In this document: positions 5,136 to 33,571 of the stretch, piece after piece
Layout: every line of letters begins with the position of its first letter
Position numbering within the stretch: the first letter of the stretch is position 1
Origin: a virus
Lineage: Duplodnaviria; Heunggongvirae; Uroviricota; Caudoviricetes
Reading direction: 5' to 3' (one strand)
Virus record (IMG/VR): IMGVR_UViG_3300018065_000012
DNA: 46,881 bases
Position numbers and translations under genes: made by a program
Notes under the pieces: model-generated
What the model was told of the DNA's origin: nothing
Database searches by the model: none
What the model saw: only the letters and a program-made list of their open reading frames with translations

Positions 5136-5894
5136 ATGACAGATATCATTGTTCTGACTCACAACAAGGAAGAGAAAACCTGTCGTTGTTTTGAATCCAT
5201 TGCGTTGAATACAAAAAATTATCGGGTGCTTTGGGTTGACAATGGCTCAGAAGAAGCAAGCATTCAAAAGGTTTTGCCGTTTGCTGAAAAGCTTGAAAAC
5301 TTTCGCTTGATGCGCAACAAGGAAAATGAAGGGTTTTCAAAAGGGGTCAATTGCGCCTTGCGTCTTTTCTTGTTTGACGGATTATCTGATCACCTTATCT
5401 TGCTGAACAATGACGTTGTTGTGACGAAAGGTTGGCTTGATCATTTGATTGCTGCGATGAAGAAATCAGGTTTGGATGCAATTGGCCCAGTGACATCAGA
5501 CAATTGTCAACAAAGCCTTGAAGCATTACGGCCTCAATTGAGTAGAAAATTGCCGGAGTTCACGGACGAAACGACAGAGGAAAAAGCGAGAATATTATAT
5601 GAGGACGCAGGTAGTGCAGTTTATCCGGTGACTTCAATCTTGACTTTTTTCTGTGTGTTGTTTCGCAGGGAAACGGTTGAACAAATCGGGTTGCTTGATG
5701 AAAACATTTTCGCCTACGGTGAAGATAACGATTATTGTGAGCGAATGAAACGCACGGGGAAGAAAATGGGATTAGCTGTTGGAATTTACGTTGAGCATGA
5801 TCACGGCGCAACGGCTCAGTTGTTTGGAGACAGCTGGAAAGAGAAACAAATGAAAAAGGCTTCGGCGTATATCCAGCAGAAATATAATCTTTAG
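5136..5894 (+). CDS. Family 2 glycosyltransferase (GT-A fold)
   Basis: IIVLTHN...VDNGS...LLNNDVVV... and YGEDNDYCERM (DxD/ED motifs typical of GT2). ATG 5136 with GAGGAAAG SD; the ORF-track frame opens at TTG 5121. Confidence 0.7.
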   Translation: MTDIIVLTHNKEEKTCRCFESIALNTKNYRVLWVDNGSEEASIQKVLPFAEKLENFRLMRNKENEGFSKGVNCALRLFLFDGLSDHLILLNNDVVVTKGWLDHLIAAMKKSGLDAIGPVTSDNCQQSLEALRPQLSRKLPEFTDETTEEKARILYEDAGSAVYPVTSILTFFCVLFRRETVEQIGLLDENIFAYGEDNDYCERMKRTGKKMGLAVGIYVEHDHGATAQLFGDSWKEKQMKKASAYIQQKYNL

Positions 5895-5981
5895 GCGTTG
5901 TGGTGAAACTGGCAGACACGCATGATTCAGGGTCATGTTCCCTTTTTGGGAGTGAGGGTTCGACTCCCTCCAACGCCACCA
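5894..5981 (+). tRNA. tRNA-Leu(CAG), class II
   Basis: Acceptor GGCGTTG/CAACGCC, anticodon stem CATGA/TCATG loop UUCAGGG, variable arm TTCCCTTTTTGGGAG, T-arm GAGGG-TTCGACT-CCCTC, A73, CCA. The first G overlaps the upstream stop codon. Confidence 0.8.
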
Positions 5982-5983
5982 TC

Positions 5984-6058
5984 GGCCCTATGGAGTAATC
6001 GGAAACTCACCAGATTCTCAGTCTGGAATTCAGGGTTCGAGTCCCTGTAGGGTCACCA
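5984..6058 (+). tRNA. tRNA-Glu(CUC)
   Basis: Acceptor GGCCCTA/TAGGGTC, D GAGT/ACTC, anticodon stem CCAGA/TCTGG loop UUCUCAG, T-arm CAGGG-TTCGAGT-CCCTG, A73, CCA. Confidence 0.8.
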
Positions 6059-6089
6059 GCTTCGGATTATGAATTGCTTAAAAGATAAA

Positions 6090-6166
6090 GGGCGATTAGC
6101 TCAGCTGGACAGAGCACTTGCTCGACAAGCAAGGGGTCAGTGGTTCGAGTCCACTATCGCCCACCA
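6090..6166 (+). tRNA. tRNA-Val(GAC)
   Basis: Acceptor GGGCGAT/ATCGCCC, D GCTC/GAGC, anticodon stem CTTGC/GCAAG loop UCGACAA (C33 is unusual), T-arm AGTGG-TTCGAGT-CCACT, A73, CCA. Anchored to ORF-track frames 6069/6118. Confidence 0.75.
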
Positions 6167-6177
6167 TTGTAGGAATC

Positions 6178-6255
6178 GGACGCGTAGCTCAGATTGGTCA
6201 GAGCACTTCTCTTACAAGGAAGGGGTCACAGGTTCGAGTCCTGTCGCGTCCACCA
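6178..6255 (+). tRNA. tRNA-Val(UAC)
   Basis: Acceptor GGACGCG/CGCGTCC, D GCTC/GAGC, anticodon stem CTTCT/GGAAG loop CUUACAA, T-arm ACAGG-TTCGAGT-CCTGT, A73, CCA. Confidence 0.8.
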
Positions 6256-6273
6256 AATGAAAGGCGGTGGAAA

Positions 6274-6507
6274 ATGGAAAACAAGGCGCTACCAAAGATC
6301 AAACTACGGGCCGTAAAAGAACCACAAAAAGAAAAGGCTCCAAAGAACACGTATTTGCTCACCATGCGCTTTCCAATCACCGCACTTGACGATGTTGAAG
6401 CGCGCGAACGTGCTTGGAAGCATATGAAGTTTCATAACTTTGTTAAGCTTGATGCAAAGCTTCAACGTGTTCGTGACAAGAAGGCACCGGAGAAAGTAAA
6501 TCTATGA
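6274..6507 (+). CDS. hypothetical protein (77 aa, Lys-rich)
   Basis: ATG 6274 after the tRNA. The ORF-track entry 6118-6507 begins inside tRNA genes, so the shorter start was chosen. Confidence 0.45.
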   Translation: MENKALPKIKLRAVKEPQKEKAPKNTYLLTMRFPITALDDVEARERAWKHMKFHNFVKLDAKLQRVRDKKAPEKVNL

Positions 6508-6932
6508 TTACAGTGACGTGTAATGGCTGTTTTGACGGGTTGCATCCCGGCCACTTGTTTTATCTTGGTTATTGTCGAGCGCAAGGTGACCGTTTGGTCG
6601 TTGGGATCAATTCCGATGAATACATAGCCAACAAGAAAAGAACAAAGCCGTATTTTGATGCTAAGCAACGTAAAGAAGTATTGCTGGCGCTCAACATTGC
6701 TGAAGATGTAATTGTGTTTGATGAACCGAATCCAAACGAATTCATCCGTAAGGTTCATCCGCAAGTGCATTGTACGGGTGAAGAATACGGCTATGAATGT
6801 GCTGAGTCAGTAATTTGTAATGAGCTTGGAATCAAATTGGTATTGGTTCCAAGAACGGCAATATGGTCAACGGGAAGTTTACCGTTGATTGGAATGAAAT
6901 GGGTTGCTGATTTTATGAATAGCGGAAAATGA
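6504..6932 (+). CDS. Nucleotidyltransferase of the HldE/RfaE domain II type (heptose-1-phosphate adenylyltransferase-like or cytidylyltransferase)
   Basis: VTCNGCFDGLHPGHLFYL is the HxGH nucleotidyltransferase signature as in RfaE/HldE and TagD. ATGA overlap with the upstream gene. Confidence 0.7.
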   Translation: MITVTCNGCFDGLHPGHLFYLGYCRAQGDRLVVGINSDEYIANKKRTKPYFDAKQRKEVLLALNIAEDVIVFDEPNPNEFIRKVHPQVHCTGEEYGYECAESVICNELGIKLVLVPRTAIWSTGSLPLIGMKWVADFMNSGK

Positions 6933-6946
6933 ACGTGGAGGGGAAA

Positions 6947-7306
6947 ATGGGCAAAAACTCGCAAGATAAAGGTGATTTGAGCAAGGTTATGATCATAGGT
7001 GCCTTGATGAAGAAAGACAAAAAGGTACTTGATACAATTGGAGAAAATCACAGATTTGATCTTGCGTTTTATGAAGAAGGGACAAGATGTTTCAAAACGG
7101 TTCAATGCAAAACAGGACAGTACAAAAACGGTTGCGTGATTTTTCCTACTTGTAGTGTTGTCAAGAATTCCAAAACTGGAAAACACGAAAGAAGGACTTA
7201 TAAAGGTCAAGTGGACTTTTTTTGGAGTGTATTGTCAAAAGAAAGAAAAGTGTTATCTTGTCCCGGAGAAAATTGCCGGTCAATCTTACACGTACTTAAG
7301 AGTTGA
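6947..7306 (+). CDS. hypothetical protein
   Basis: ATG 6947 with GGAGGGG SD (ORF-track frame from 6929); ends at 7306. Confidence 0.45.
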   Translation: MGKNSQDKGDLSKVMIIGALMKKDKKVLDTIGENHRFDLAFYEEGTRCFKTVQCKTGQYKNGCVIFPTCSVVKNSKTGKHERRTYKGQVDFFWSVLSKERKVLSCPGENCRSILHVLKS

Positions 7307-7363
7307 AAAACCAAAAGTCAAATGCAACAGGATAAACCGAGCTGAAGATTATGAATTATAATC

Positions 7364-7455
7364 GGGGGGATGGCTGAGCGGCTTAAAGCGCACGGTTGCT
7401 AACCGTGTGGGCGTTAGTAGCGTCTCGTGGGTTCGAATCCCACTCCCCCCGCCAT
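7364..7455 (+). tRNA. tRNA-Ser(GCU), class II
   Basis: Acceptor GGGGGGA/TCCCCCC, anticodon stem CACGG/CCGTG loop UUGCUAA, long variable arm, T-arm GTGGG-TTCGAAT-CCCAC, G73, CCA. Confidence 0.8.
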
Positions 7456-7460
7456 TCAAG

Positions 7461-7521
7461 GAGGGCTAAACCAGTGAGGTGTTAAAGCCTCCGCAGGTTC
7501 GAATCCTGTCCCCTCCGCCAC
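7461..7521 (+). pseudogene. 61-nt tRNA-like mini-element (acceptor helix, T-arm and CCA, but no D-arm)
   Basis: GGAGGG(C)...GCAGG-TTCGAAT-CCTGT-CCCCTCC-G-CCA. Interior has a GAGG-UGUUAAAG-CCUC hairpin. Too short for a tRNA. Confidence 0.3.
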
Positions 7522-7542
7522 TTTCAAAGAAAGGAGACAAGT

Positions 7543-7698
7543 GTGTCAGATGCCAAAAAGTCTCGCAAACTGGAACGCATCAAAAGGCGCATGGAAAACG
7601 TCGTTGACGACTGCGAATCGCTTTTGAAGATTTGCAATGGCGACTTGCGCATGAAAGAATTGCGGGACAAAGCACTTGAGTTTTACAAGCTTATTTAA
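7543..7698 (+). CDS. small helical hypothetical protein (51 aa)
   Basis: GTG start 5-6 nt after AAAGGAGA. ...SRKLERIKRRMENVVDDCESLLKICNGDLRMKELRDKALEFYKLI*. The stop abuts tRNA-Ser(UGA). Confidence 0.35.
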   Translation: MSDAKKSRKLERIKRRMENVVDDCESLLKICNGDLRMKELRDKALEFYKLI

Positions 7699-7789
7699 GG
7701 AAGGTTGGCAGAGTGGTTGAATGCGCTGGTTTTGAAAACCAGTGGGCGTCAAAAACGTCTCATGGGTTCGAATCCCATACCTTCCTCCA
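7699..7789 (+). tRNA. tRNA-Ser(UGA), class II
   Basis: Acceptor GGAAGGT/ACCTTCC, anticodon stem CTGGT/ACCAG loop UUUGAAA, long variable arm, T-arm ATGGG-TTCGAAT-CCCAT, U73, CCA. Anchored to ORF-track TTG 7705. Confidence 0.8.
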
Positions 7790-7803
7790 TATATGAAATT
7801 GAT

Positions 7804-7944
7804 ATGAGACAAAACTTGACTTTGACTGACCGGATTTGTATTGTTGTCTTTGTATCGTTGATGATTCTGATGCAACCATTATGGGTTGCGTTGAGAATTC
7901 TTCAATGGTTGATCCGGTTTTGGAAACCTGACTTTCATTGGTAA
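7804..7944 (+). CDS. small hydrophobic protein (46 aa, single TM helix)
   Basis: MRQNLTLTDRICIVVFVSLMILMQPLWVALRILQWLIRFWKPDFHW; in frame with ORF-track entry 7705-7944, starting after the tRNA. Confidence 0.4.
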   Translation: MRQNLTLTDRICIVVFVSLMILMQPLWVALRILQWLIRFWKPDFHW

Positions 7945-7947
7945 TGT

Positions 7948-8024
7948 GTGCCCGTGGCTCAAATGGATAGAGCACCTGACTACGGATCAGGAGGTTGTAG
8001 GTTCGAGTCCTACCGGGCATGCCA
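7948..8024 (+). tRNA. tRNA-Arg(ACG)
   Basis: Acceptor GTGCCCG/CGGGCAT, D GCTC/GAGC, anticodon stem CCTGA/TCAGG loop CUACGGA, T-arm GTAGG-TTCGAGT-CCTAC, G73, CCA. Confidence 0.8.
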
Positions 8025-8041
8025 ACTCAAAGGAATTGCAA

Positions 8042-8122
8042 ATGAAATTCTTTGATGGAACATGGGGATGTTTGATTTGGATTGTTTTGATAGGCGGTTT
8101 ACTGGTTTACTACTTGGCCTGA
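8042..8122 (+). CDS. tiny hydrophobic ORF (26 aa)
   Basis: AAAGGAA SD then ATG. MKFFDGTWGCLIWIVLIGGLLVYYLA*. Confidence 0.25.
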   Translation: MKFFDGTWGCLIWIVLIGGLLVYYLA

Positions 8123-8134
8123 TTGGAATTCTAT

Positions 8135-8211
8135 GGTGAGAGTAGCTCAGATGGTAGAGCGTCTGGTTGTGGTCCAGAAAGTCGCGGGTTCAAGTCCCGT
8201 CTCTCACCCCA
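8135..8211 (+). tRNA. tRNA-His(GUG) with genomically encoded G-1
   Basis: G-1 pairs with C73. Acceptor GTGAGAG/CTCTCAC, D GCTC/GAGC, anticodon stem TCTGG/CCAGA loop UUGUGGU, T-arm GCGGG-TTCAAGT-CCCGT, CCA. Confidence 0.8.
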
Positions 8212-8232
8212 ATATCAACGAAAGGATGAAAT

Positions 8233-8430
8233 TTGAAATGGATAATCTTAATCCTGTTCATGTATATGATAATTGCTATGATATTTTTTCTGCATGAATG
8301 TTCTAAAATACAAAAGCATGTTCCGCCAAAACGTCTTCGACACTGTTCGGTTTACAGGACGCTTCAATGGTTTGAAGCAATTGTTCGAAGCGTTTTATGG
8401 CCGGTTGTGTTGATATTGAATATCTTTTAG
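8233..8430 (+). CDS. hypothetical small membrane protein (65 aa, TTG start)
   Basis: ORF-track frame. Strongly hydrophobic N-terminus (WIILILFMYMIIAMIFFL). Confidence 0.3.
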   Translation: MKWIILILFMYMIIAMIFFLHECSKIQKHVPPKRLRHCSVYRTLQWFEAIVRSVLWPVVLILNIF

Positions 8431-8520
8431 GAAGGGTGGCTGAGCGGCTTAAGGCACTGGTTTCGAAAACCAGCGGACGCCAAAAGCGTCCCGTGGGTTC
8501 AAATCCCATCCCTTCCTCCA
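8430..8520 (+). tRNA. tRNA-Ser(CGA), class II
   Basis: Acceptor GGAAGGG/CCCTTCC, anticodon stem CTGGT/ACCAG loop UUCGAAA, long variable arm, T-arm GTGGG-TTCAAAT-CCCAT, U73, CCA. Confidence 0.8.
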
Positions 8521-8536
8521 TTGTAGGGAACAATCG

Positions 8537-8683
8537 ATGTTCGCTTGGTTTAAGAAATTGTTTTGTAAGAAAGAGGAAGCGCCAGAAGTAGTGGGCTTGA
8601 AAAAGTTTGAGCATCACGCTGAAATCACACTTGAATATAGCGATGGCAAAAGGGTAACACTTTGCGTTCGCAAAGGAGAATAA
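8537..8683 (+). CDS. small hypothetical protein (48 aa)
   Basis: ATG 8537. MFAWFKKLFCKKEEAPEVVGLKKFEHHAEITLEYSDGKRVTLCVRKGE*. Confidence 0.35.
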   Translation: MFAWFKKLFCKKEEAPEVVGLKKFEHHAEITLEYSDGKRVTLCVRKGE

Positions 8684-8758
8684 TCATGGATCATTCAGTT
8701 ACTTCCCGGAGCGGCGAAAGCACGATGGGGCGCAGGCCGCGTGAACCGGGAGGGATTT

Positions 8759-9016
8759 ATGAATCCAGAACGTCGGAGAAAAGGGTTGCTGAAGGTTTGG
8801 AAACTGATGCGGATTTGGCGTAATTATCATGATGGCGATAAAGAATACGCCAATGATGGGTTGATTGCGCAAGGGCATGAGAAAAACCGGAAGCCGTGCT
8901 CTTGTATGATGTGTTGCAATCGTCGCCGTTCAGGTTTTAGTAAGGGAAAAGAAAAGCTTACAAGACAGGAGCGAAAATCAGAAAACAGTTTCAAGGATCA
9001 ACTGGATGAATTGTAG
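8759..9016 (+). CDS. hypothetical basic protein with a Cys cluster (85 aa)
   Basis: ATG 8759 after GGGAGGG (ORF-track frame from 8741). CSCMMCC motif. An alternative out-of-frame 45-aa ORF at 8686-8823 with AAAGGAG SD overlaps it. Confidence 0.45.
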   Translation: MNPERRRKGLLKVWKLMRIWRNYHDGDKEYANDGLIAQGHEKNRKPCSCMMCCNRRRSGFSKGKEKLTRQERKSENSFKDQLDEL

Positions 9017-9104
9017 AGGGGTGTGGTAATTGGTAGCCAGCTGGTTTGGAACACCAGTGTGCCCTAATAAGGCATTGCGGGTTCAAATCCCGTCCCCTCT
9101 GCCA
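9015..9104 (+). tRNA. tRNA-Ser(GGA), class II
   Basis: Acceptor AGAGGGG/CCCCTCT, D TGGT/GCCA, anticodon stem CTGGT/ACCAG loop UUGGAAC, long variable arm, T-arm GCGGG-TTCAAAT-CCCGT, G73, CCA. Confidence 0.75.
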
Positions 9105-9118
9105 CTTTTGAACGATGC

Positions 9119-9194
9119 TGAGGGATAGCTCAATTGGTAGAGCACTTGGCTCTGGTCCAAGCGGTTGCAGGTTCGAATCCTGTTCCCTCTGCCA
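9119..9194 (+). tRNA. tRNA-Gln(CUG) (U1/U72 unpaired, G73)
   Basis: Acceptor TGAGGGA/TCCCTCT, D GCTC/GAGC, anticodon stem CTTGG/CCAAG loop CUCUGGU, T-arm GCAGG-TTCGAAT-CCTGT. Confidence 0.75.
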
Positions 9195-9199
9195 TTTTA

Positions 9200-9274
9200 T
9201 GGCCCGTAGTATAATTGGCAATACACAAGGTTTTGGTCCTTGTATTCCACGTTCGAGTCGTGGCGGGCCAGCCA
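9200..9274 (+). tRNA. tRNA-Gln(UUG) (U1-A72, G73)
   Basis: Acceptor TGGCCCG/CGGGCCA, D GTAT/ATAC, anticodon stem CAAGG/CCTTG loop UUUUGGU, T-arm CCACG-TTCGAGT-CGTGG, CCA. Confidence 0.8.
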
Positions 9275-9276
9275 AC

Positions 9277-9354
9277 GGGACGGTAGCTCAATTTGGTTAG
9301 AGCATCTGCCTTTTAAGCAGGAGGTTGTGGGTTCGAGTCCCACCCGTCTCACCA
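9277..9354 (+). tRNA. tRNA-Lys(UUU)
   Basis: Acceptor GGGACGG/CCGTCTC, D GCTC/GAGC, anticodon stem TCTGC/GCAGG loop CUUUUAA, T-arm GTGGG-TTCGAGT-CCCAC, A73, CCA. Anchored to ORF-track TTG 9325. Confidence 0.8.
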
Positions 9355-9372
9355 ATCTTGAAAGGAGGAACA

Positions 9373-10317
9373 TTGAAGTTTTTTGTAACAGGCGTCTATG
9401 GATTCATCGGCAGTTGCTTTGCAAGAATGTTGATTGAAGAAACTAATCACACGGTTGTTGGTTTTGGCCGGAACACTGATCAAAGAAATAAAGGCCGAAT
9501 CAAAAGCATTATCAGCAGTGAACGTTTCAACCTTATCAATGGCGACCTTGCTGGGGATATAAGTGGATTGCTTGAAGGCGTTGACGTTGTAGTTCATTTT
9601 GCGGCAAAGACTTTTGTGGACCATTCAGTGAAAGACCCTGAACCGTTTGTCCGCAGCAATATTATTGGCAGTTATCAACTTTTGGAACAAGCACGGATTT
9701 ACAAGCCCAAACGCTTCATTCACATTTCAACGGATGAAGTGTATGGCGCGTGTTTAGAAGGGTCTTACAGTGAGGATTCTCCGCTGAATCCGACAAATCC
9801 ATATTCAGCGACAAAAGCAGCTGCGGACGTTTTGGCAACAGGCTACTTTCATACGTACGGGGTGAACGTTATTATCACTCGCACTGAAAACAATGTTGGT
9901 CCGTTCCAGCACCCGCAAAAGGTTCTCCCGACGTTTGTAAGGAAAGCATTGGCTGGTGAGTTGTTGCCGGTTTACGGGGATGGAAAGCACGTAAGACAAT
10001 GGCTTCACGTAAAAGACCATTGCTATGCCGTTTTGCTTTTGATTGAAAAAGGACAGATTGGAGACATTTATCATATTGCTGGCTCAAAGGAATTGCAAAA
10101 CATCGAGTTGGCAAAAATGGTTTTGAAAATCTTGAAAAAGCCGGAAGACGCTTTTGAGTTTATTCCGGACAATGAGATTCGGCCCAATCATGACCGGCGT
10201 TATGCGATTGATTCATCCAAGCTTCGAGCGTTGGGTTGGGAACCAAAGTTTGATCGTGATGAAACCATTCGCAAAACGGTTGAATGGTACGTTAAAAATC
10301 AAAACTGGTTGGTGTAA
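9373..10317 (+). CDS. NDP-sugar 4,6-dehydratase (dTDP-glucose 4,6-dehydratase/RfbB-like, extended SDR)
   Basis: KFFVTGVYGFIGS Rossmann motif, YSATKAAAD (YxxxK), VRQWLHVKDHC. Start chosen at TTG 9373 after AAAGGAGG. The ORF-track frame (9325) opens inside tRNA-Lys. Confidence 0.75.
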   Translation: MKFFVTGVYGFIGSCFARMLIEETNHTVVGFGRNTDQRNKGRIKSIISSERFNLINGDLAGDISGLLEGVDVVVHFAAKTFVDHSVKDPEPFVRSNIIGSYQLLEQARIYKPKRFIHISTDEVYGACLEGSYSEDSPLNPTNPYSATKAAADVLATGYFHTYGVNVIITRTENNVGPFQHPQKVLPTFVRKALAGELLPVYGDGKHVRQWLHVKDHCYAVLLLIEKGQIGDIYHIAGSKELQNIELAKMVLKILKKPEDAFEFIPDNEIRPNHDRRYAIDSSKLRALGWEPKFDRDETIRKTVEWYVKNQNWLV

Positions 10318-10322
10318 ATTAT

Positions 10323-10399
10323 GGACGTATAGCTCAGTTGGTTAGAGCACTCGCCTGATAAGTGAGAGGCCGCTGGTTCGAATCCAGCTACGTCCACCA
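10323..10399 (+). tRNA. tRNA-Ile(GAU)
   Basis: Acceptor GGACGTA/TACGTCC, D GCTC/GAGC, anticodon stem CTCGC/GTGAG loop CUGAUAA, T-arm GCTGG-TTCGAAT-CCAGC, A73, CCA. Confidence 0.8.
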
Positions 10400-10603
10400 A
10401 CTTTATTTGCTCTCATAGGAAGGTCAGGACACCACTGCTGAAGGTAGGAGACAATTGTCGCTCGCACTACTGAGGGTGCAACACAAATAGGCTCCGTTTG
10501 GACTGGGTGAGCAGCAGGAAGGAGCGGGTTGTGGCAAAGATGAATGACAGATTGGAAAACAAAATCCTGCCTACTGTAGAATCTGTCGATGAGAGCATTT
10601 TGT

Positions 10604-10681
10604 GGGTGCGTAGCAAACATTGGTTTTGCAGCGGACTCTTAATCCGTCTTAATGTGGGTTCGATTCCCACCGCACCTACCA
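10604..10681 (+). tRNA. tRNA-Lys(CUU)
   Basis: Acceptor GGGTGCG/CGCACCT, D GCAA/TTGC, anticodon stem GCGGA/TCCGT loop CUCUUAA, T-arm GTGGG-TTCGATT-CCCAC, A73, CCA. Anchored to ORF-track 10498 frame. Confidence 0.75.
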
Positions 10682-10686
10682 ACTTT

Positions 10687-10762
10687 GCTCCCGTAGCTCA
10701 GCTGGACAGAGCGGGACTTTCCTAAAGTTCAGGTCGCAGGTTCGAATCCTGCCGGGAGTACC
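10687..10762 (+). tRNA. tRNA-Arg(CCU)
   Basis: Acceptor GCTCCCG/CGGGAGT, D GCTC/GAGC, anticodon stem GGACT/AGTTC loop UUCCUAA, T-arm GCAGG-TTCGAAT-CCTGC, A73, CCA. Confidence 0.8.
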
Positions 10763-10765
10763 AAA

Positions 10766-11188
10766 ATGATGATTGAAGAAAAACATAAAGACCTTTTTAC
10801 AGTGAGTGATGATTATCACCTTGCTCATTGTATCGCTACTGACATGAGAATGGGCGCTGGAATTGCGTTGCCAATGCAAAAGAAATTTAGATTGAGGGCG
10901 AAAATAAGAAACAGCAACGAATCCATATTGAGTCCAACTTGTATTTTGACTGGTCGCGTTTTCAATTTGATTACAAAACGGCGCAGCAGCGGAAAGCCGA
11001 CCTATCAATCGCTTCAAGCAAGCTTAGTAAAGATGCGTGAAATCATAGAACAAAAAGGCGTTACAAAACTTGCAATGCCAAAAATTGGTTGTGGCCTTGA
11101 TCGTCTTAATTGGGCCGTTGTGCGTCAAATGCTTGAAGATATTTTTTATGGTTTGGAGATCGAAATACTGGTTTGCGTTTGGAAATGA
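10766..11188 (+). CDS. Macro domain protein (ADP-ribose binding or processing)
   Basis: HLAHCIATDMRMGAGIA ... VTKLAMPKIGCGLDRLNW match conserved macro-domain motifs. Confidence 0.6.
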   Translation: MMIEEKHKDLFTVSDDYHLAHCIATDMRMGAGIALPMQKKFRLRAKIRNSNESILSPTCILTGRVFNLITKRRSSGKPTYQSLQASLVKMREIIEQKGVTKLAMPKIGCGLDRLNWAVVRQMLEDIFYGLEIEILVCVWK

Positions 11189-11191
11189 AAT

Positions 11192-11267
11192 GGGGGATTA
11201 GCTCAGTTGGGAGAGCGTTTGACTGGCAGTCAAAAGGTCACGAGTTCGAGTCTCGTATCCTCCACCA
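11192..11267 (+). tRNA. tRNA-Ala(GGC) with G3-U70
   Basis: Acceptor GGGGGAT/ATCCTCC, D GCTC/GAGC, anticodon stem TTTGA/TCAAA loop CUGGCAG, T-arm ACGAG-TTCGAGT-CTCGT, A73, CCA. Confidence 0.8.
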
Positions 11268-11272
11268 CTTGT

Positions 11273-11349
11273 GCTCCCGTAGCTCAAATGGATAGAGTCC
11301 CTGTCTTCTAAACAGGATGTTGCAGGTTCGAGTCCTGCCGGGAGTGCCA
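11273..11349 (+). tRNA. tRNA-Arg(UCU)
   Basis: Acceptor GCTCCCG/CGGGAGT, D GCTC/GAGT, anticodon stem CCTGT/ACAGG loop CUUCUAA, T-arm GCAGG-TTCGAGT-CCTGC, G73, CCA. Confidence 0.8.
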
Positions 11350-11363
11350 ACTTGGAGAACAAA

Positions 11364-11555
11364 ATGGAATTCAGATGGTGGCCGTGCAGGTTGGCAAATG
11401 ATTTTTGTGAGTTGTTGAAAATTCCCGCATATGTTTTAGCATTGCCACTGAAACTGATTGAACATTATCAAGAGACGATTTGGAAAAATTACGCAACTCA
11501 ATCTGACCGGGCGTATACGACAACGGAAATTTCAGATGAAGATTTGGCGGTGTAG
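11364..11555 (+). CDS. hypothetical protein (63 aa)
   Basis: ATG 11364 (ORF-track TTG 11352). The stop lies inside the first 10 nt of the next tRNA. Confidence 0.4.
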   Translation: MEFRWWPCRLANDFCELLKIPAYVLALPLKLIEHYQETIWKNYATQSDRAYTTTEISDEDLAV

Positions 11556-11623
11556 CTCAGTCTGGACAGAGCATCGGATTCATACCCCGAAGGCCACTGG
11601 TTCGATTCCAGTCACCGCTACCA
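11546..11623 (+). tRNA. tRNA-Met(CAU) (initiator-like anticodon stem ...CCCGA; could be Ile2/k2C type)
   Basis: Acceptor GGCGGTG/CACCGCT, D GCTC/GAGC, anticodon stem TCGGA/CCCGA (A31/C39 mismatch) loop UUCAUAC, T-arm ACTGG-TTCGATT-CCAGT, A73, CCA. Confidence 0.7.
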
Positions 11624-11628
11624 ATTTT

Positions 11629-11716
11629 GGGCGAGTGGAGGAATTGGTATACTCGCGGGATTTAAAATCCCGTGGACTAATAGTCCATGAGGGTTCGAGT
11701 CCCTCCTCGCCTACCA
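11629..11716 (+). tRNA. tRNA-Leu(UAA), class II
   Basis: Acceptor GGGCGAG/CTCGCCT, 3-bp D-stem GAG/CTC, anticodon stem CGGGA/TCCCG loop UUUAAAA, variable arm TGGACTAATAGTCCAT, T-arm GAGGG-TTCGAGT-CCCTC, A73, CCA. Anchored to ORF-track ATG 11687. Confidence 0.8.
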
Positions 11717-11734
11717 CTTGACAGGAGAATTTCA

Positions 11735-12289
11735 ATGCCCAACGAGTATTTGTTTGAGTGCCGCGTTCCGAAACATTACTTTGTAACGTCTGGAGCAGGC
11801 CAAATAACGCAGGATGCGGGAGCTGATCATTATGAAACAGGTTCCTATGATTTGGCTTTGCTGGATGCTTCAATTGAGAACTTCAACGTTGTGAAGTATA
11901 CCAGTGTAGTCCCTAAAAATGCGGAAGAAATCCCTTTGGATGAAGCCAAAAAGTATTTCCGTCACGGCGCGGTGCTTGAATGCATCATGGCTCAAATGAA
12001 CGGCCCGCAAGGTGAACATCTTTGCGCTGGCGTAGGAAGATGCAAATGCAAAGTCAATGGAAGCTACATCGGTGGCTTTGCGGCTGAGTATGAAGGCAAT
12101 GCTTCGACAGAGAAAGCAGAAAAAATCCTTGAAAAAGATTTACAAGGCATTGTTGACAGGCGCTATGGAAAAAGTGGTGAAATGTTTGATCTTGAGTTCA
12201 CAATAAGAGATTTGGTTGTTGACGACGAATACGGCACTGTTTTGGCCGCTATTTGCTTTATCACGTACGAATTTCCGGTGATAGGATAG
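11735..12289 (+). CDS. Pyruvoyl-dependent arginine decarboxylase (PdaD)-like
   Basis: Recalled similarity to archaeal PdaD: VPKHYFVTSGAGQ (cf. NTVSLVAGSSEG), ALLDASIENFNVVKYTSVVP (cf. ALLNAGIGNVNLIRISSIMP, Ser-Ser self-cleavage region), AAEYEGNASTEKAEKIL (cf. IMEYEGKCSKKEAEK). ATG 11735 with GGAGA SD; the ORF-track frame begins inside the tRNA. Confidence 0.5.
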   Translation: MPNEYLFECRVPKHYFVTSGAGQITQDAGADHYETGSYDLALLDASIENFNVVKYTSVVPKNAEEIPLDEAKKYFRHGAVLECIMAQMNGPQGEHLCAGVGRCKCKVNGSYIGGFAAEYEGNASTEKAEKILEKDLQGIVDRRYGKSGEMFDLEFTIRDLVVDDEYGTVLAAICFITYEFPVIG

Positions 12290-12294
12290 AATGT

Positions 12295-12381
12295 GGCAGC
12301 GTGGTGAAATTGGTATACACGCGTGATTCAAAATCACGTCCGGGCAACCGGGTGAGGGTTCGAGTCCCTCCGCTGCTACCA
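12295..12381 (+). tRNA. tRNA-Leu(CAA), class II
   Basis: Acceptor GGCAGCG/CGCTGCT, anticodon stem CGTGA/TCACG loop UUCAAAA, variable arm TCCGGGCAACCGGGT, T-arm GAGGG-TTCGAGT-CCCTC, A73, CCA. Confidence 0.8.
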
Positions 12382-12388
12382 AACTAAA

Positions 12389-12595
12389 ATGAAAGACAAA
12401 AGCGTAATCCCAGAAGGCATTTATTGTCACGGCGTAAATGGCGTCTGCCCATATTGGTCCTCAAGGGAGGACAAACCAGAGCAGGAAAATGGATACTGTT
12501 CTTTTCTTGAAATGGGCGATTGGAACGATGAGCCTTTGACCCTTTTGTGGGATCAAGTGAAAGAATGCGGAATAAATGATGATTGGCCAACATAG
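12389..12595 (+). CDS. hypothetical protein (68 aa, Cys/Trp-containing)
   Basis: ATG 7 nt after the tRNA CCA. The stop lies inside the next tRNA. Confidence 0.45.
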   Translation: MKDKSVIPEGIYCHGVNGVCPYWSSREDKPEQENGYCSFLEMGDWNDEPLTLLWDQVKECGINDDWPT

Positions 12596-12661
12596 CTCAA
12601 TTGGCAGAGCAGGGCACTTGTAATGCTCAGGTTGTGGGTTCGAATCCCTCTGTTGGCTCCA
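12586..12661 (+). tRNA. tRNA-Thr(UGU)
   Basis: Acceptor GCCAACA/TGTTGGC, D GCTC-AATTGGCA-GAGC, anticodon stem GGGCA/TGCTC loop CUUGUAA, variable AGGTT, T-arm GTGGG-TTCGAAT-CCCTC, U73, CCA. Confidence 0.8.
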
Positions 12662-12677
12662 CTTCAAAGGGGAAATT

Positions 12678-13073
12678 ATGATTTGGATTTTTCTTATTGT
12701 TGCCGTTTATATTTTCATTGATGTTTGTATCCGACAACGCCCAAAAAAGGTTGATATATACAAGCAACATTTGATAGCAGACAGGGAACAAGCAGAAGAC
12801 ATTTCGAGAAAACGAGAAGCCATTTGGGAAAGGTCAAAGGAAAAGAGAGAAAAATACGAGAAGGAAATCAAAACACAACAAAAAATTGGGAGAAATCTTT
12901 TCAAGGCGTTTGAGCTGATTGGTTGGTTTCGAGACGAACATAACAGACGATGGATTACGCCTTGCGGTGTTTTAGAAGACGTTGAGATTTATTTTTCTAC
13001 GAAACTTTATGTTCATACAGCGATTTACCTTTTGAAGAAGAAAAACTTGTTTGCTGCCGTGGCTCAGTGGTAG
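12678..13073 (+). CDS. membrane protein (N-terminal TM helix, charged coiled C-terminal part)
   Basis: MIWIFLIVAVYIFIDVCI followed by a K/E/R-rich region. The last 21 nt overlap tRNA-Thr(GGU). Confidence 0.5.
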   Translation: MIWIFLIVAVYIFIDVCIRQRPKKVDIYKQHLIADREQAEDISRKREAIWERSKEKREKYEKEIKTQQKIGRNLFKAFELIGWFRDEHNRRWITPCGVLEDVEIYFSTKLYVHTAIYLLKKKNLFAAVAQW

Positions 13074-13127
13074 AGCACGTCCTTGGTAAGGACGAGGTCA
13101 TGGGTTCGAGTCCCATCGGCAGCTCCA
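13053..13127 (+). tRNA. tRNA-Thr(GGU)
   Basis: Acceptor GCTGCCG/CGGCAGC, D GCTC/GAGC, anticodon stem CGTCC/GGACG loop UUGGUAA, T-arm ATGGG-TTCGAGT-CCCAT, U73, CCA. Confidence 0.8.
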
Positions 13128-13167
13128 AGCCTTTATCACCCCGCTATTTACGTTATGCAAATCATGG

Positions 13168-13244
13168 GCCACCTTAGCACAATTTGGCGGTGCGCTGCTT
13201 TCGTAAGGCAGAGGTTCCCGGTTCGAATCCGGGAGGTGGCTCCA
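13168..13244 (+). tRNA. tRNA-Thr(CGU)
   Basis: Acceptor GCCACCT/AGGTGGC, D GCAC/GTGC, anticodon stem CTGCT/GGCAG loop UUCGUAA, T-arm CCCGG-TTCGAAT-CCGGG, U73, CCA. Confidence 0.8.
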
Positions 13245-17304: not shown

Positions 17305-17338
17305 CTTGGGAAGGGCTTGAAATATAGCCCTTCCCAAG
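17305..17338 (+). promoter_or_regulatory. perfect 12-bp hairpin CTTGGGAAGGGC-(10 nt)-GCCCTTCCCAAG immediately after the fibre gene stop
   Basis: Perfect inverted repeat 17 nt downstream of TAA 17286-17288. No U-tract, so more likely a stability/processing element or a weak terminator. Confidence 0.45.
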
Positions 17339-17344: not shown

Positions 17345-17653
17345 ATGAACGCAGACGATAAGTACAATTTCAAATTCTGCATTATTGGTCAAGAGACAAT
17401 AAGGCAAAAGTTGATGACAATTCGTTTTCTTCGATTGTCACAACAGCCAACGCTCGCGATTGATTCATTTAATGCGGAGAAAAAAGGCATCATTGAAACA
17501 GCCAAATTTGCTATCGTGTTCAGGCCGGAGAAAAAGAACGATCCAATAAAGGAAGTTGGCGCTCTGATTGATAATGGATGGCCTGAATTTCGTATTTTGG
17601 TTGAGGGTGATGACTTCCCGATGTGCGGTATACCATCGGACAATATTGCATGA
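17345..17653 (+). CDS. hypothetical protein (102 aa)
   Basis: ORF-track frame; weak RBS; function unknown. Confidence 0.4.
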   Translation: MNADDKYNFKFCIIGQETIRQKLMTIRFLRLSQQPTLAIDSFNAEKKGIIETAKFAIVFRPEKKNDPIKEVGALIDNGWPEFRILVEGDDFPMCGIPSDNIA

Positions 17654-24987: not shown

Positions 24988-24991
24988 AGCA

Positions 24992-28055: not shown

Positions 28056-28075
28056 ATAGGTGCAGGAGTTAGCGA

Positions 28076-29311: not shown

Positions 29312-29330
29312 GAAGGTGTAGGAGTCAGAA

Positions 29331-30569: not shown

Positions 30570-30578
30570 GGAGAGAGT

Positions 30579-30872: not shown

Positions 30873-30877
30873 GATGA

Positions 30878-31063
30878 ATGCAAGTGATAAAGGCGATAAG
30901 AAAAAGAAAAATTTGCGCACAATGTTTGAAGATTCTTAATCCTCATTCCATACAATATTTTGTGGAGAAAGGATGCATCTGCGACGGGTGTTACAAACTG
31001 AATAAGTGGAAAGAAGAAAACCCAACGTCTTTAATACTTCCCTATTGCGGAAGGAGAATATGA
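30878..31063 (+). CDS. small Cys-rich (zinc-ribbon-like) protein (61 aa)
   Basis: CAQC...CICDGC...C pattern. The 3' end contains the GGAAGGAG RBS of the next gene. Confidence 0.4.
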   Translation: MQVIKAIRKRKICAQCLKILNPHSIQYFVEKGCICDGCYKLNKWKEENPTSLILPYCGRRI

Positions 31064-32521
31064 ATGAGCAGTAGAACACAACAGCGTGAAAAAAAGCGAA
31101 GGGAAAAACGGCAAAGGAAAAAAGAGAAAGATAGAGTTCAACAAACTGTTTCCCCAATGCCTCCAGAACAAAGAATAAGGCGACTGCCATACATTGTTCT
31201 CAAGTTGCTTACAGGCGCTAACATTGCTGAAAACTACAAGCTGAATAAAGATGCAGTTGCTATCATTTGGGACAACGATACTGATCATATCAGTAGTGAA
31301 GATTTCAAGATTGCTCAGAAAATAGCTGACGAACTTTTCAAGGAGCAAGTAAAAGAAAAAAGCTTGATGCCTACTATCAATACGCTTCCAGTTGGAATGA
31401 TGCTCCATAGGCTTGCTACGCAAAAAATCGAGCGTATGGTGCGGAACGAAACAGAAGGCAAAAAGAAAATCCTGTTTATCAAAGACAGAAGCGGATGTGG
31501 CTACTGGAGAATGTTAGTTCCTTCGCGTTACATGGATGCAGAAAACCTGTATATCGACATCACTGAATCGGAATTGGTCTTTGACTTTCTTTTGGAATAC
31601 GATACAATCGTCATTCAGCGTCTTTGCAATTGGCGTGAATATTACATCATTGAAAGACTGAAGCGGCACGGCAAGCGTATTGTTTACGACATTGATGATG
31701 ATATTTTTGACGTGCCTGTGGATAATCCCGCTGCTCGCTACGTGAAAAAAGATCAACACAAAGCGGCTTACGGAATTATGCGGCTTTGTGATGCGGTGAC
31801 GACAACCAGTGAGATTTTGAAAGAGCGTTTGAAGTGCCCTGAAACAACGGTTGTTATTCCAAACGCGATTGATCTTGAAGACGGTTACCCCGCGAAGTAT
31901 CGTCAAAGTGAAGACGGTATCAAACGTATTGTTTGGATGGGCGGTGGAAGTCATAGCAAGGATTGGCTTGAATGTTTTGAAGCTGTGGACAAGATTCTTC
32001 AAGAGCGCGAAGATGTTCGGCTTGTAATTTACGGGGATATACCACGGGCCTTGAGAGCAGCCCTTGCTACTGATGATAAACCATGGTTTACGAAAAGAAT
32101 TGAATTTGTACCGTTTCAAGCAGTTGAGACATATGTGGAATTGACAAAGGAAACAACGGCTGATTGCGCATTGGCTCCGTTATCCAATGAAAGTTTCAAC
32201 GCCGCAAAGAGTAATATCAAATGGTTGGAATACACGGCAATGGGGGTTCCAACTGTAGCCAGCAATGTAAGCCCGTACAAAGAACATATTGACAGCGGCA
32301 GAAACGGTGTCTTGGTTTCAAACACGGATGAATGGTATCGGGCAATTACAGCGTTTCTGGATGACCCAGAACTTTGTGCTAATGTTGTTGATGAAGCAGT
32401 GAAATCAGTTGACGAGCGTTTTGACGTAAAGAAAATTGTGCATGATTGGGAAGAAGTAATTTTGGGCCATGAGATGTATTCAGAAGAAAATCAACCACAG
32501 CTTGTAAACATCGAGACATGA
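31064..32521 (+). CDS. GT-B fold glycosyltransferase with a highly basic N-terminus
   Basis: C-terminal SNIKWLEYTAMGVPTVAS...GRNGVLV resembles the GT1/GT4 donor-binding domain. N-terminal KKRREKRQRKKEK. Confidence 0.55.
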   Translation: MSSRTQQREKKRREKRQRKKEKDRVQQTVSPMPPEQRIRRLPYIVLKLLTGANIAENYKLNKDAVAIIWDNDTDHISSEDFKIAQKIADELFKEQVKEKSLMPTINTLPVGMMLHRLATQKIERMVRNETEGKKKILFIKDRSGCGYWRMLVPSRYMDAENLYIDITESELVFDFLLEYDTIVIQRLCNWREYYIIERLKRHGKRIVYDIDDDIFDVPVDNPAARYVKKDQHKAAYGIMRLCDAVTTTSEILKERLKCPETTVVIPNAIDLEDGYPAKYRQSEDGIKRIVWMGGGSHSKDWLECFEAVDKILQEREDVRLVIYGDIPRALRAALATDDKPWFTKRIEFVPFQAVETYVELTKETTADCALAPLSNESFNAAKSNIKWLEYTAMGVPTVASNVSPYKEHIDSGRNGVLVSNTDEWYRAITAFLDDPELCANVVDEAVKSVDERFDVKKIVHDWEEVILGHEMYSEENQPQLVNIET

Positions 32522-32534
32522 AAAGGAGAAAACT

Positions 32535-32633
32535 ATGGTACAGCAAGCAAAAAAATTGATCACGAAATACAAAAAGTCACTCTCGCTAAAACGTGACAGG
32601 ATTGTTAAAAGAAAGCCAAAACCACAGGCATAA
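32535..32633 (+). CDS. tiny basic ORF (32 aa)
   Basis: AAAGGAGAAAACT then ATG. Fills the gap exactly; the stop lies 2 nt before the next ATG. Confidence 0.3.
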   Translation: MVQQAKKLITKYKKSLSLKRDRIVKRKPKPQA

Positions 32634-32635
32634 TT

Positions 32636-33571
32636 ATGACAAAGTATTTGGTTACTGGCGCGGCAGGTTTCATTGGTTCGCACCTTGTCGAAAATCTAAT
32701 CAAGCGTGGAGATAAAGTACGGGGTGTTGACAATTTTGCGACAGGTCGTCTTGAAAACATAAAGTCATTTCTCGATGATTTTGAATTTGTTGAAGGCGAT
32801 TTGAGAGAAGACAAAGTAGTTTCAGAAACAGTCAAAGACGTTGACGTAATCTTTCATGAAGCTGCAATTCCTTCTGTTCCCCGTTCTGTAGCCGACCCTT
32901 GGCTAAGTCACGAATCCAACGTTGATGTCACTTTGAAATTGCTAATGGCTTCGCGGGGGACGGTCAAGCGTTTGATTTATGCAGCGTCGTCTTCGGCCTA
33001 TGGTCAAAATCCACGATTGCCAAAAATTGAGAGTTTTCCAATTGCTCCAATTTCTCCGTATGCTGTAACGAAAGTCGTTGGCGAGTTGTATTGCAAAGTG
33101 TTTACTGAGATTTTTGAAGTTGAGACGATTTCTCTCCGGTATTTCAACGTTTTTGGTCCGCGTCAAAATCCAAAGTCACAGTATGCAGCGGTGATTCCAA
33201 AATTTATCGTTTCCATGTTGAGAGGAGAGCAACCACGTATTTATGGAGACGGTTTGCAATCCCGCGATTTTACATATGTCCAAAACGTCGTTGAAGCAAA
33301 TTTGTTAGCAGCGAAAGCAAAGAAGGCTTCAGGTCAGGTGTATAATATAGCCTGTGGACAACAGATTGATTTACTTACGTTGGTAACGAAAATCAATCAA
33401 CTTCTTGAAACAGAGATTGAACCAATTTTAGACCCGGAAAGAGCAGGCGACGTAAAGCATTCTTTGGCCGCTATTGATAATGCAAGGCGTGGATTGAAGT
33501 TTGAGCCGGTTGTGAGTTTTGATGAAGGTTTGGCAAAAACAGTTGATTGGTTTAAGTGTTGTCCTGAATAG
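32636..33571 (+). CDS. NAD-dependent sugar epimerase/dehydratase (UDP-sugar 4-epimerase-like, extended SDR)
   Basis: YLVTGAAGFIGSHL Rossmann motif, YAVTK (YxxxK), DGLQSRDFTYVQNVV. Confidence 0.75.
   Translation: MTKYLVTGAAGFIGSHLVENLIKRGDKVRGVDNFATGRLENIKSFLDDFEFVEGDLREDKVVSETVKDVDVIFHEAAIPSVPRSVADPWLSHESNVDVTLKLLMASRGTVKRLIYAASSSAYGQNPRLPKIESFPIAPISPYAVTKVVGELYCKVFTEIFEVETISLRYFNVFGPRQNPKSQYAAVIPKFIVSMLRGEQPRIYGDGLQSRDFTYVQNVVEANLLAAKAKKASGQVYNIACGQQIDLLTLVTKINQLLETEIEPILDPERAGDVKHSLAAIDNARRGLKFEPVVSFDEGLAKTVDWFKCCPE

Follow-up and report, generated by a model that had tools for sequence, protein, structure and literature searches.

The stretch of DNA analysed here, referred to throughout as the window, comprises 46,881 nucleotides of plus-strand sequence from the IMG/VR virus record IMGVR_UViG_3300018065_000012 (Caudoviricetes), and the subject of the analysis is a set of six genes for glycosyltransferases (GTs) and sugar-nucleotide enzymes within it. 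Proteins encoded in the window have identical copies on public metagenome contigs, the largest of which is 338,319 bp long. The window accordingly comes from an uncultured jumbo phage whose genome measures at least 338 kb. Almost all long open reading frames (ORFs) lie on the plus strand, and 47 transfer RNA (tRNA) genes covering all 20 amino acids were identified using ARAGORN, in agreement with Rfam. These are arranged in two blocks separated by the tRNA-free stretch 13425-33571 (Table 1). The six genes had been proposed from the sequence alone in an earlier reading (the original prediction), and each was found at the proposed position as a plus-strand ORF with a family or fold match and with catalytic motifs present. 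Comparison with relatives showed that the six are a conserved core combined with strain-variable accessories and not one pathway. Genes are named below by the position of their first base, related contigs by L numbers and homologous proteins by P numbers.

Table 1. Positions and assignments of the genes and blocks discussed in the text (aa, amino acids).
Feature	Position	Strand	Basis or remarks
GT2 (GT-A type) glycosyltransferase, soluble, 252 aa	5136-5894	+	PF00535 Glycos_transf_2
HIGH-superfamily nucleotidyltransferase, HldC / RfaE-domain-II type, 142 aa	6504-6932	+	PF01467, 7.1e-13
RmlB-type nucleoside diphosphate (NDP)-glucose 4,6-dehydratase, 314 aa	9373-10317	+	TIGR01181, PDB matches, motifs
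324-aa protein, first gene of the cassette	13425-14399	+	Homologs in L016 (57%), L021 (75%), L015 and L006
957-aa fibre with VDS-type repeats	14415-17288	+	25% Ser+Thr; weak tail-needle PHROG match
102-aa protein	17345-17653	+	Immediately precedes the GT-B gene; position shared by homologs in L016 (49%) and L015 (42%)
GT4-type GT-B glycosyltransferase, 376 aa	17666-18796	+	Fold prediction; family tied to phage structural modules
960-aa fibre with internally duplicated Ig-like segments	18991-21873	+	L016 homolog directly after the 31064-type GT
Six tandem paralogs, about 250-258 aa	21886-26499	+	Weak Mtd second-domain and tail-fibre matches
Three tandem right-handed beta-helix paralogs, 411-412 aa	26820-30569	+	PF13229; 57-63% identical
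Cys-rich zinc-ribbon-like ORF, 61 aa	30878-31063	+	Ends one base before the 31064 start codon
GT4-type GT-B glycosyltransferase, 485 aa	31064-32521	+	PF13692, PF00534, model
Predicted WbpP/WbgU/TviC-type UDP-HexNAc(A) C4-epimerase, 311 aa	32636-33571	+	PDB matches, short-chain dehydrogenase/reductase (SDR) motifs
Collagen-like tail-fibre protein	about 41491-46881, runs past the window end	+	1,894 aa on L019 (10489-16173)
tRNA blocks	2585-13244 and 33892-39571	+	ARAGORN; flank the fibre module
L023 island, part 1			CgeB-like GT, FkbM methyltransferase and other methyltransferases, two radical-SAM proteins (one with SPASM), PIG-L deacetylase
L023 island, part 2			GT1, weak MptE/Maf-like protein, GT7C/GT2, GT2, GT9, GT4 (P0070), then a Zn_ribbon_8 protein

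The 17666 enzyme is weakly recognisable at the sequence level (PF13692, E = 2.4e-3, 18.6 bits against a gathering score of 27) and has no PHROG match. An AlphaFold2 model was computed from an alignment of 40 homologs, with a mean predicted local distance difference test (pLDDT) value of 91.1 and a predicted template modelling score (pTM) of 0.88. When this model was searched against the PDB using Foldseek, the top matches were all GT4 enzymes of the GT-B fold (BshA, MshA, WaaG, PimA and GlgM), with a best E value of 7.7e-13 (about 1e-12) and template modelling scores (TM) of 0.65-0.71, and the structural neighbours in BFVD were mostly giant-virus and uncultured-phage proteins of the GT1 family. 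The alignment of 40 sequences, which extends down to 26% identity, contains 17 invariant residues including R293, E297, G302 and P304 of the donor site. Long members of the family are fused to S-adenosylmethionine (SAM)-dependent methyltransferases, to a GT11-like domain or to CgeB-like GT domains, and the family is therefore regarded as one of working glycan enzymes. A role as a structural pseudo-enzyme was considered and rejected on account of these fusions and of the invariant donor-site residues. A family profile searched against 1.84 billion representatives retrieved 243 clusters at E ≤ 1e-30 as opposed to 2,889 at E ≤ 1e-3, and by these counts the family is sharply bounded. No homolog was found by tblastn in 50,697 GenBank phage records, and a peptide-pattern scan of IMG/VR for relatives gave no match.

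Members of the 17666 family were found in virion modules in all seven contexts examined, including those of unrelated podophages. In the window the gene follows those of the 324-aa protein, the VDS-repeat fibre and the 102-aa protein, and this cassette is kept with the 17666-type GT homologs of L016 (73% identity), L015 (63%) and L006 (52%), in each of which the VDS-repeat fibre is syntenic with the GT. The 324-aa homologs are located directly upstream of a VDS-repeat fibre in these three contigs and in L021, and in L015 and L006 the cassette is closely preceded by genes for the baseplate proteins V, W, J and P2_I. Distant members, with 28-30% identity, occupy the head or tail modules of unrelated podophages: directly after an SU10-type portal gene, with overlapping stop and start codons (L007 and L008), in the structural block of a phage with a P22-type portal (L009 and L010), or between large He_PIG and LPD38 proteins (L011 and L012).

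For the 31064 enzyme, family matches were above the gathering scores (PF13692, 1.1e-15, 58.5 bits; PF00534, 3.8e-13, 49.8 bits). A PDB sequence search gave no match, and fold-level evidence was used: the model (pLDDT 91.2) has GT4 enzymes as its top matches, with E values of about 1e-13. Several of its structural neighbours are GT4 enzymes that use N-acetylhexosamine (HexNAc) linked to uridine diphosphate (UDP), among them SdgB, which O-GlcNAcylates repeat proteins. The polybasic N-terminus noticed in the original prediction is present, with 13 lysine or arginine residues among the first 30; the family-specific N-terminal domain of about 100-130 residues is common to the whole family and the polybasic tail is found only in the clade of the window. 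At least 174 homologs were identified, many on contigs of about 300 kb, and D209, D211, D212, K382, S383, K386 and E389 are invariant in an alignment of 45 sequences. In five homologs (P0172, P0175, P0179, P0180 and P0182; for example L025:10001-12499) inteins of the LAGLIDADG/Hint type were observed, inserted at the invariant K382/S383 of the donor-binding motif. Inteins typically occupy conserved functional sites, and their position therefore points to strong functional constraint. The ribonucleotide reductase encoded on L025, the contig of P0175, also carries an intein.

Five of the eight contexts examined for the 31064 family lie in or beside virion modules (the window, L001, L016, L013 and L014) and three do not (L023, L024 and L025). 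In L016 the 31064-type gene stands between the 17666-type GT and a 910-aa fibre, which is followed by four of the paralogs of about 250 aa, and in L001 it follows five such paralogs. A distant homolog in the phage KimJongPhill is found beside terminase and capsid genes, together with SDR and methyltransferase genes, and another, in MW202801, separates the capsid genes from the tail genes and is accompanied by genes of the NodB, methyltransferase and GT2 kinds. The homolog in L025 is accompanied by genes for a DegT aminotransferase, an acetyltransferase and a GT2+GT1 protein, and that in L024 by miscellaneous genes of DNA and RNA metabolism. A weak homolog of the 61-aa Cys-rich ORF that precedes the 31064 gene is also encoded before the GT of L001, and in L023, L024 and L025 the surroundings of the paralogous GT include Zn_ribbon_8 proteins.

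The adjacent 32636 protein is predicted to be a group-3 (WbpP/WbgU-type) UDP-HexNAc 4-epimerase, since it matches WbpP (3.6e-76) and WbgU (1.2e-71) in the PDB far better than GalE (about 1e-52 or weaker). TviC is its best NCBIfam match (257 bits, under the cutoff), and SDR motifs are present as SSSAYG and YAVTK. The HexNAc-type GT4 neighbours of the 31064 model, SdgB included, match this putative UDP-HexNAc epimerase encoded next to it. The claim that two of the six genes lie inside the structural module was borne out, as the 17666 gene is located between the two fibre genes of about 960 codons and the 31064 and 32636 genes close the fibre and receptor-binding block.

The remaining three enzymes are encoded within the first tRNA block. 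The 5136 gene stands between tRNA-Leu(tag) and tRNA-Leu(cag); its ORF opens at TTG 5121, two bases beyond the end of a tRNA-Leu at 5119, while gene callers place the start at ATG 5136. Its product matches PF00535 over profile positions 2-167 of 168 (E = 7.8e-20, 71.9 bits against a gathering score of 23.3), and the nucleotide- and metal-binding acidic motifs were read from the sequence, without structural superposition, as VDNGS, LLNNDVV and YGEDNDYCERM. A PDB sequence search gave no match, so that the identity of this GT2 rests on Pfam and the motifs. Its best subfamily matches are of the rhamnosyltransferase, MftF and GlfT1 types (NCBIfam rhamnosyltransferase, 1.6e-12, far under the cutoff), and C-terminal transmembrane helices are absent.

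The 6504 protein has rfaE_dom_II as its top NCBIfam match (91.7 bits, under the cutoff of 181.5), with TagD-type models matching too, and 5x9q, deposited as a 'putative cytidylyltransferase', as the closest solved structure (9.6e-14); the HxGH motif is present as HPGH. A homolog with 67% identity occupies the identical slot in L021, between tRNA-Val(tac) and tRNA-Ser(gct). Another, in L022 (53%), lies inside an island of GT2, NTP_transferase (RmlA/GalU-type), GT2, methyltransferase and GT2 genes, a context that favours a sugar-phosphate over a substrate of the NAD or CoA type. No gene for the partner enzymes GmhA, HldA or GmhB was found in the window, nor any heptose kinase or isomerase gene in the window or its 10-kb flanks. 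An alternative assignment as a nicotinamide mononucleotide (NMN) adenylyltransferase paired with the AAA_28 protein encoded at 40110-40646 was rejected: no NadR or NMNAT model scored, and the best matches (RfaE-II, HldC, TagD) and the L022 homolog in its glycan island also spoke against it.

The 9373 protein, encoded between tRNA-Lys(ttt) and tRNA-Ile(gat), scores 347.7 bits with the dTDP-glucose 4,6-dehydratase model TIGR01181, against a cutoff of 365.1. Its top PDB matches are all dTDP-glucose 4,6-dehydratases (2hun, 2.9e-84), and the GxxGxxG (GVYGFIG), TDE (ISTDEVYG) and YxxxK (YSATKAAAD) motifs are intact. The structure matches also include 6vlo, presumably a Mimivirus enzyme. The RmlB reaction gives a 4-keto-6-deoxy intermediate only. 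No genes for RmlA, RmlC or RmlD were detected within the window or its 10-kb flanks, and none for an aminotransferase in the window.

The original prediction held that the six genes could together make and transfer an activated sugar, and this part was not supported: the window encodes incomplete donor pathways, and the set therefore relies on the host or on other parts of the phage genome for the missing enzymes. Conservation is uneven as well. Both GT-B genes are retained as components of the fibre module in relatives, at 52-81% identity, whereas the GT2, RmlB and epimerase genes are variable. In L021 a 32-tRNA array precedes genes homologous to those for the 324-aa protein and the VDS-repeat fibre, and GT2 and RmlB are absent at the syntenic positions of that array; tRNA-Lys(ttt) and tRNA-Ile(gat), which flank RmlB in the window, are adjacent there with nothing between them. 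No close relatives of RmlB or GT2 were found in IMG/VR, and no homolog of the epimerase was found beside the GT in L001 or L016.

Candidate acceptors are encoded alongside the two GT-B genes. The VDS-repeat fibre is a candidate acceptor of the 17666 enzyme, and the 102-aa protein is possibly a partner or adaptor of that enzyme. The six paralogs of about 250 aa are 48-86% identical in their N-terminal halves and 22-61% in their C-terminal halves, and arrays of four to six of them adjoin a GT in L001, L003 and L016, with copy numbers among relatives ranging from four to at least six. From these sequence comparisons the paralogs are probably alternative receptor-binding tips and are further candidate acceptors. 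The beta-helix triplet, which is absent from L001, is regarded as encoding spike-like or depolymerase-like proteins, one of which has a weak match to a chlorovirus glycoprotein repeat. Serine and threonine together make up 25% of the VDS-repeat fibre and 17-25% of the paralogs and beta-helix proteins. The VDS-repeat fibre gene and the 102-aa gene are separated by 56 nt, within which a perfect palindromic hairpin (17305-17338) with a 13-bp stem containing eight G-C pairs was observed; it may delimit a transcript or serve in RNA processing. A scan of the fibre block for promoters and terminators returned terminator-like sites at the frequency expected from shuffled sequence. When the block was compared by megablast with the GenBank phage records, the sole match was a tRNA.

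The collagen-like protein invoked in the original prediction as a possible glycoprotein is real, its ORF continuing on the parent contig. The part within the window contains 460 G-X-Y triplets, mostly GNQ and GVQ with little proline, of which 81 carry serine or threonine and none lysine. Towards its 3' end the window has a G+C content of 53% and a strong skew towards purines, both due to this gene. On L019, about 2 kb downstream of it, a 1,002-aa protein with three PF00535 (GT2) domains is encoded, and the interval between the two holds five small ORFs, one with three transmembrane-like segments. A further island of at least 14 glycan-tailoring genes is present at L023:1-12671; it is closed by P0070, a paralog of the 31064 GT with 56% identity, and, as the contigs recorded for P0070 and for the window's own GT are both 338,319 bp long, we infer that it belongs to the same genome as the window. 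The GT9 encoded in the island (PF01075, 43 bits) is of the heptosyltransferase family and is a plausible consumer of the product of the HldC-like enzyme. In a hydropathy scan of plus-strand ORFs, no polytopic membrane protein of the Wzx, Wzy, WecA or Gtr type was detected in the window or the island.

Given the enzyme identities, folds, conserved catalytic motifs, synteny and patterns of presence and absence described above, cytoplasmic glycosylation of fibre proteins, with the accessory enzymes supplying or varying the donors, is assigned a probability of about 50%, and we infer its protein acceptor, donor sugars and timing as follows. Two soluble, retaining GT4-type enzymes of the GT-B fold would O-glycosylate fibres in the host cytoplasm late in infection, before or during assembly. 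The 17666 enzyme would act on the Ser/Thr-rich VDS-repeat fibre, perhaps with the 102-aa protein, and the 31064 enzyme on a fibre or on the receptor-binding paralogs. The WbpP-like epimerase would convert host UDP-GlcNAc into UDP-GalNAc, the putative donor for the 31064 enzyme. RmlB would produce an NDP-4-keto-6-deoxyhexose, which host or other phage enzymes would complete for the rhamnosyltransferase-like GT2, and the HldC-like enzyme would equip the GT9, whose gene lies outside the window, with a donor of the ADP-heptose type.

Of the original prediction's proposal that virion proteins or host surface glycans are modified, the link to the virion has gained support from the conserved position of the GT genes in fibre and virion modules of relatives, whereas virion proteins, host glycans and DNA are all candidate acceptors. 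Several observations weigh against fibre glycosylation. The link to an acceptor is one of gene position and is circumstantial. A paralogous branch of the 31064 family (P0070, P0170 and P0175) is located outside structural modules, either within glycan islands or surrounded by genes of DNA and RNA metabolism, among them those for ParB and DNA methylases. The sporadic occurrence of GT2, RmlB and epimerase among relatives is a pattern that has been read as host-surface diversification (Iyer et al., PMC7824862), and neither RmlA, RmlC or RmlD nor a heptose kinase or isomerase is encoded in the window. Finally, peripheral GT4 and GT2 enzymes could equally use host lipid-linked intermediates without any membrane protein of the phage.

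The last of these points bears on a remodelling of the host surface, in which the enzymes would alter lipopolysaccharide (LPS), capsule or exopolysaccharide intermediates and so block superinfecting phages. This is the published interpretation of clusters of SDR, HIGH-nucleotidyltransferase and GT genes in jumbo phages and cyanophages (PMC7824862), and RmlB-like, TagD/HldC-like and epimerase genes do cluster in cyanomyophages. It accounts well for the sporadic GT2, RmlB and epimerase, the first two of which differ between close relatives, and is in keeping with the nearest solved relatives of the GT-B enzymes, which include WaaG, PimA and PglA acting on lipid-linked acceptors, and with the GT9, a member of the LPS heptosyltransferase family. 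Superinfection exclusion does not, however, predict that the GT-B genes should be conserved in fibre and virion modules of very different phages, and neither a flippase, a polymerase, an initiating phosphoglycosyltransferase nor a Gtr-type membrane protein is encoded in the window or the island; lysogeny genes were likewise not seen in the window. On the whole, host-surface remodelling appears rather unlikely. An explanation without any common function, by which six independent insertions and fibre-module passengers would form a set by coincidence of annotation, is judged unlikely overall but is partly true for the genes of the tRNA block: GT2, RmlB, a PD-(D/E)XK nuclease and an arginine decarboxylase are inter-tRNA insertions absent from L021, and the nearby HNH and PD-(D/E)XK nuclease genes suggest mobile insertions. 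The incomplete donor pathways and the lack of conservation of the epimerase beside the GT point the same way. Against it stand the organised clusters elsewhere in the genome (the triple-GT2 protein and the island of at least 14 genes with a GT9 matching the HldC-like enzyme), the L022 homolog of the HldC-like enzyme within a glycan island, the position of the epimerase next to a HexNAc-type GT4, and the synteny of the GT-B genes across wide divergence.

Modification of DNA was also considered, with the GTs adding sugars to modified bases in order to evade restriction and the polybasic N-terminus of the 31064 enzyme aiding DNA binding. Phage enzymes of the GT-A and GT-B folds glycosylate 5-hydroxymethylcytosine and may neighbour epimerase, ParB-like and methyltransferase genes (bioRxiv 10.1101/2023.12.21.572611). 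The 31064 homolog P0170 (L024) is encoded about 7 kb from ParB and DNA-methylase genes, and a gene of the dCMP/cytidine-deaminase family is present at 35331-35786. Such pathways are, however, usually clustered (bioRxiv 10.1101/2023.12.21.572611), and no thymidylate-synthase-like hydroxymethylase, 5mYOX/TET or C5-methyltransferase gene was detected in the 46.9-kb window or its 10-kb flanks. Both GT-B models match GT4 enzymes and not T4 beta-glucosyltransferase, only the closest relatives have the polybasic tail, which is missing from the remaining family, and the GT-B genes are embedded in virion modules; a role in DNA modification is accordingly very unlikely. An extended form of fibre glycosylation was put forward more tentatively, as a possibility: an autonomous system on the scale of giant viruses would place a multi-sugar, methylated glycan on fibres including the 1,894-aa collagen-like protein, the donor genes of the tRNA array would vary the 'serotype' of the phage, and the 17666 GT4 family would be a new class of virion-protein O-glycosyltransferases in jumbo myophages and small podophages.

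Among the closest known systems are the polysaccharide-modification clusters of jumbo phages, whose sporadic and polymorphic distribution Iyer et al. (2021) ascribed to diversification of outer polysaccharides (PMC7824862), and those of cyanomyophages such as S-B43, S-SM2 and P-SSM2. These clusters share with the set studied here one to four SDR paralogs, small HIGH nucleotidyltransferases, several GT families and O-methyltransferases, and a distribution that is sporadic and polymorphic between relatives. They differ in that the genes of the window are dispersed over 28 kb among tRNA and fibre genes, with a compact cluster elsewhere in the genome at L023, that two of the GTs are conserved in the tail-fibre module, and that no PfkB sugar kinase was seen. 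The function published for them (host capsule, anti-superinfection) was itself proposed from computation and accords poorly with the fibre-linked GTs. Virion glycoproteins have been reported for XacN1, a tRNA-rich jumbo myophage (PMC5852040), and glycosylation of capsid and tail-tube subunits for mycobacteriophages (Freeman et al. 2023, as cited in PMC12619734). Both resemble the present case in that phage GTs are proposed or shown to glycosylate the structural proteins of their own phage. As summarised in the citing article, the acceptors in the actinophages are capsid and tail-tube C-termini, whereas here the GTs are linked to fibre genes, with the capsid genes outside the window; the 17666 family, moreover, has no homolog detected in the 50,697 cultured phage records.

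Giant viruses glycosylate capsid or fibril proteins with their own machinery, as in chloroviruses and the fibrils of Mimivirus (PMC9614988, PMC5408694). Likewise, they encode their own nucleotide-sugar enzymes, including RmlB-like ones, and decorate capsid or fibril independently of the host by means of multi-domain GTs and methyltransferases; the present case differs in its bacterial host and tailed-phage virion, in orthology that holds at the superfamily level only, and in that glycosylation of its virion proteins is a proposal. For the collagen-like fibre a bacterial analogy is available. SgtA, encoded beside bclA3 in C. difficile, glycosylates threonine in collagen-like repeats (PMC7157674), and the glycan of BclA in B. 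anthracis consists of HexNAc, rhamnose and anthrose (PMC7793302). In both settings a GT-A glycosyltransferase is encoded next to the gene for a collagen-like filament, and in the bacterial system threonine or serine in G-X-Y triplets is O-glycosylated. Sugars of the rhamnose and anthrose type are 6-deoxyhexoses that derive from the RmlB product, and by analogy this is chemistry that RmlB together with a HexNAc epimerase could feed. The phage triplets are nevertheless not GPT repeats and the neighbouring gene encodes a triple-GT2 protein that is not SgtA-like, so that the comparison is one of analogy only. Seroconversion and DNA glucosylation are other classical roles of phage glycosyltransferases. 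As opposed to gtrABC seroconversion, no membrane proteins like GtrA, GtrB or GtrC are encoded in the window, and as opposed to DNA glucosylation of the T4 type, neither a fold like the T4 alpha- or beta-GT nor base-hydroxymethylation genes were found nearby.

The enzyme classes as such are already known in cultured phages: hundreds of records of such phages contain RmlB-like dehydratases, TagD/HldC-like nucleotidyltransferases and nucleotide-sugar epimerases, which in cyanomyophage clusters stand side by side, and for jumbo phages a review has covered this class of genes (PMC7824862). The modest novelty lies in a bounded GT4 family, as yet uncharacterised, that is linked to virion modules in small podophages as well as in jumbo myophages, in the cassette of fibre and GT genes, in a GT family with inteins and in the extent of the toolkit. 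If fibre glycosylation is correct, sugar coats on receptor-binding organelles would be widespread and overlooked in environmental phages, with a bearing on host recognition, on resistance to proteases and fibre-targeting defences and on phage antigenicity, and the VDS-repeat fibre with its adjacent GT would provide a concrete enzyme/substrate pair. If instead the host surface is the target, superinfection exclusion by a lytic jumbo phage would be implied. The practical gain is modest either way, namely a cleaner annotation, a defined GT family, and a core with accessories instead of one pathway.

Further genes were observed in and around the tRNA blocks. Those encoded between single tRNAs comprise an HNH nuclease, a PD-(D/E)XK nuclease, GT2, RmlB, an arginine decarboxylase and a deaminase, and the syntenic 32-tRNA array of L021 lacks several of these protein inserts. 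The arginine decarboxylase (11720-12289, plus strand) is pyruvoyl-dependent (PF01862, 6e-32), is located between tRNA-Leu(taa) and tRNA-Leu(caa) and would yield agmatine; no homolog of it was found in L021. The cytidine/dCMP-deaminase-family protein (35331-35786, plus strand) is encoded in the second tRNA block, a position that makes a tRNA-editing, TadA-like activity possible. A short Peptidase_S24-like protein (39811-40113) and the AAA_28 (NadR-kinase-like) protein (40110-40646), both on the plus strand, are encoded within or just past that block. The flanking DNA upstream encodes an anaerobic ribonucleotide reductase. Near the 5' end of the window a caspase-family (Peptidase_C14) protein is encoded on the plus strand (93-1103, E = 3.5e-32), which is kept in L021 at 74%, and a C14 peptidase gene is also present near the GT homolog on a distant 318-kb phage contig (L024:7831-8706).

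The 47 tRNA genes include one for tRNA-Ile(tat). The 86-nt tRNA gene at 35953-36038 (plus strand) matches the Rfam tRNA-Sec model with 60.6 bits against a gathering score of 47, and displays a long acceptor stem, a D stem of 6 bp and a long variable arm. With a GCA (Cys) anticodon it is reported by ARAGORN as tRNA-Cys, and it is the sole Cys tRNA in the window; from its sequence it is predicted to be a selenocysteine-like tRNA with a cysteine anticodon, encoded by a phage.

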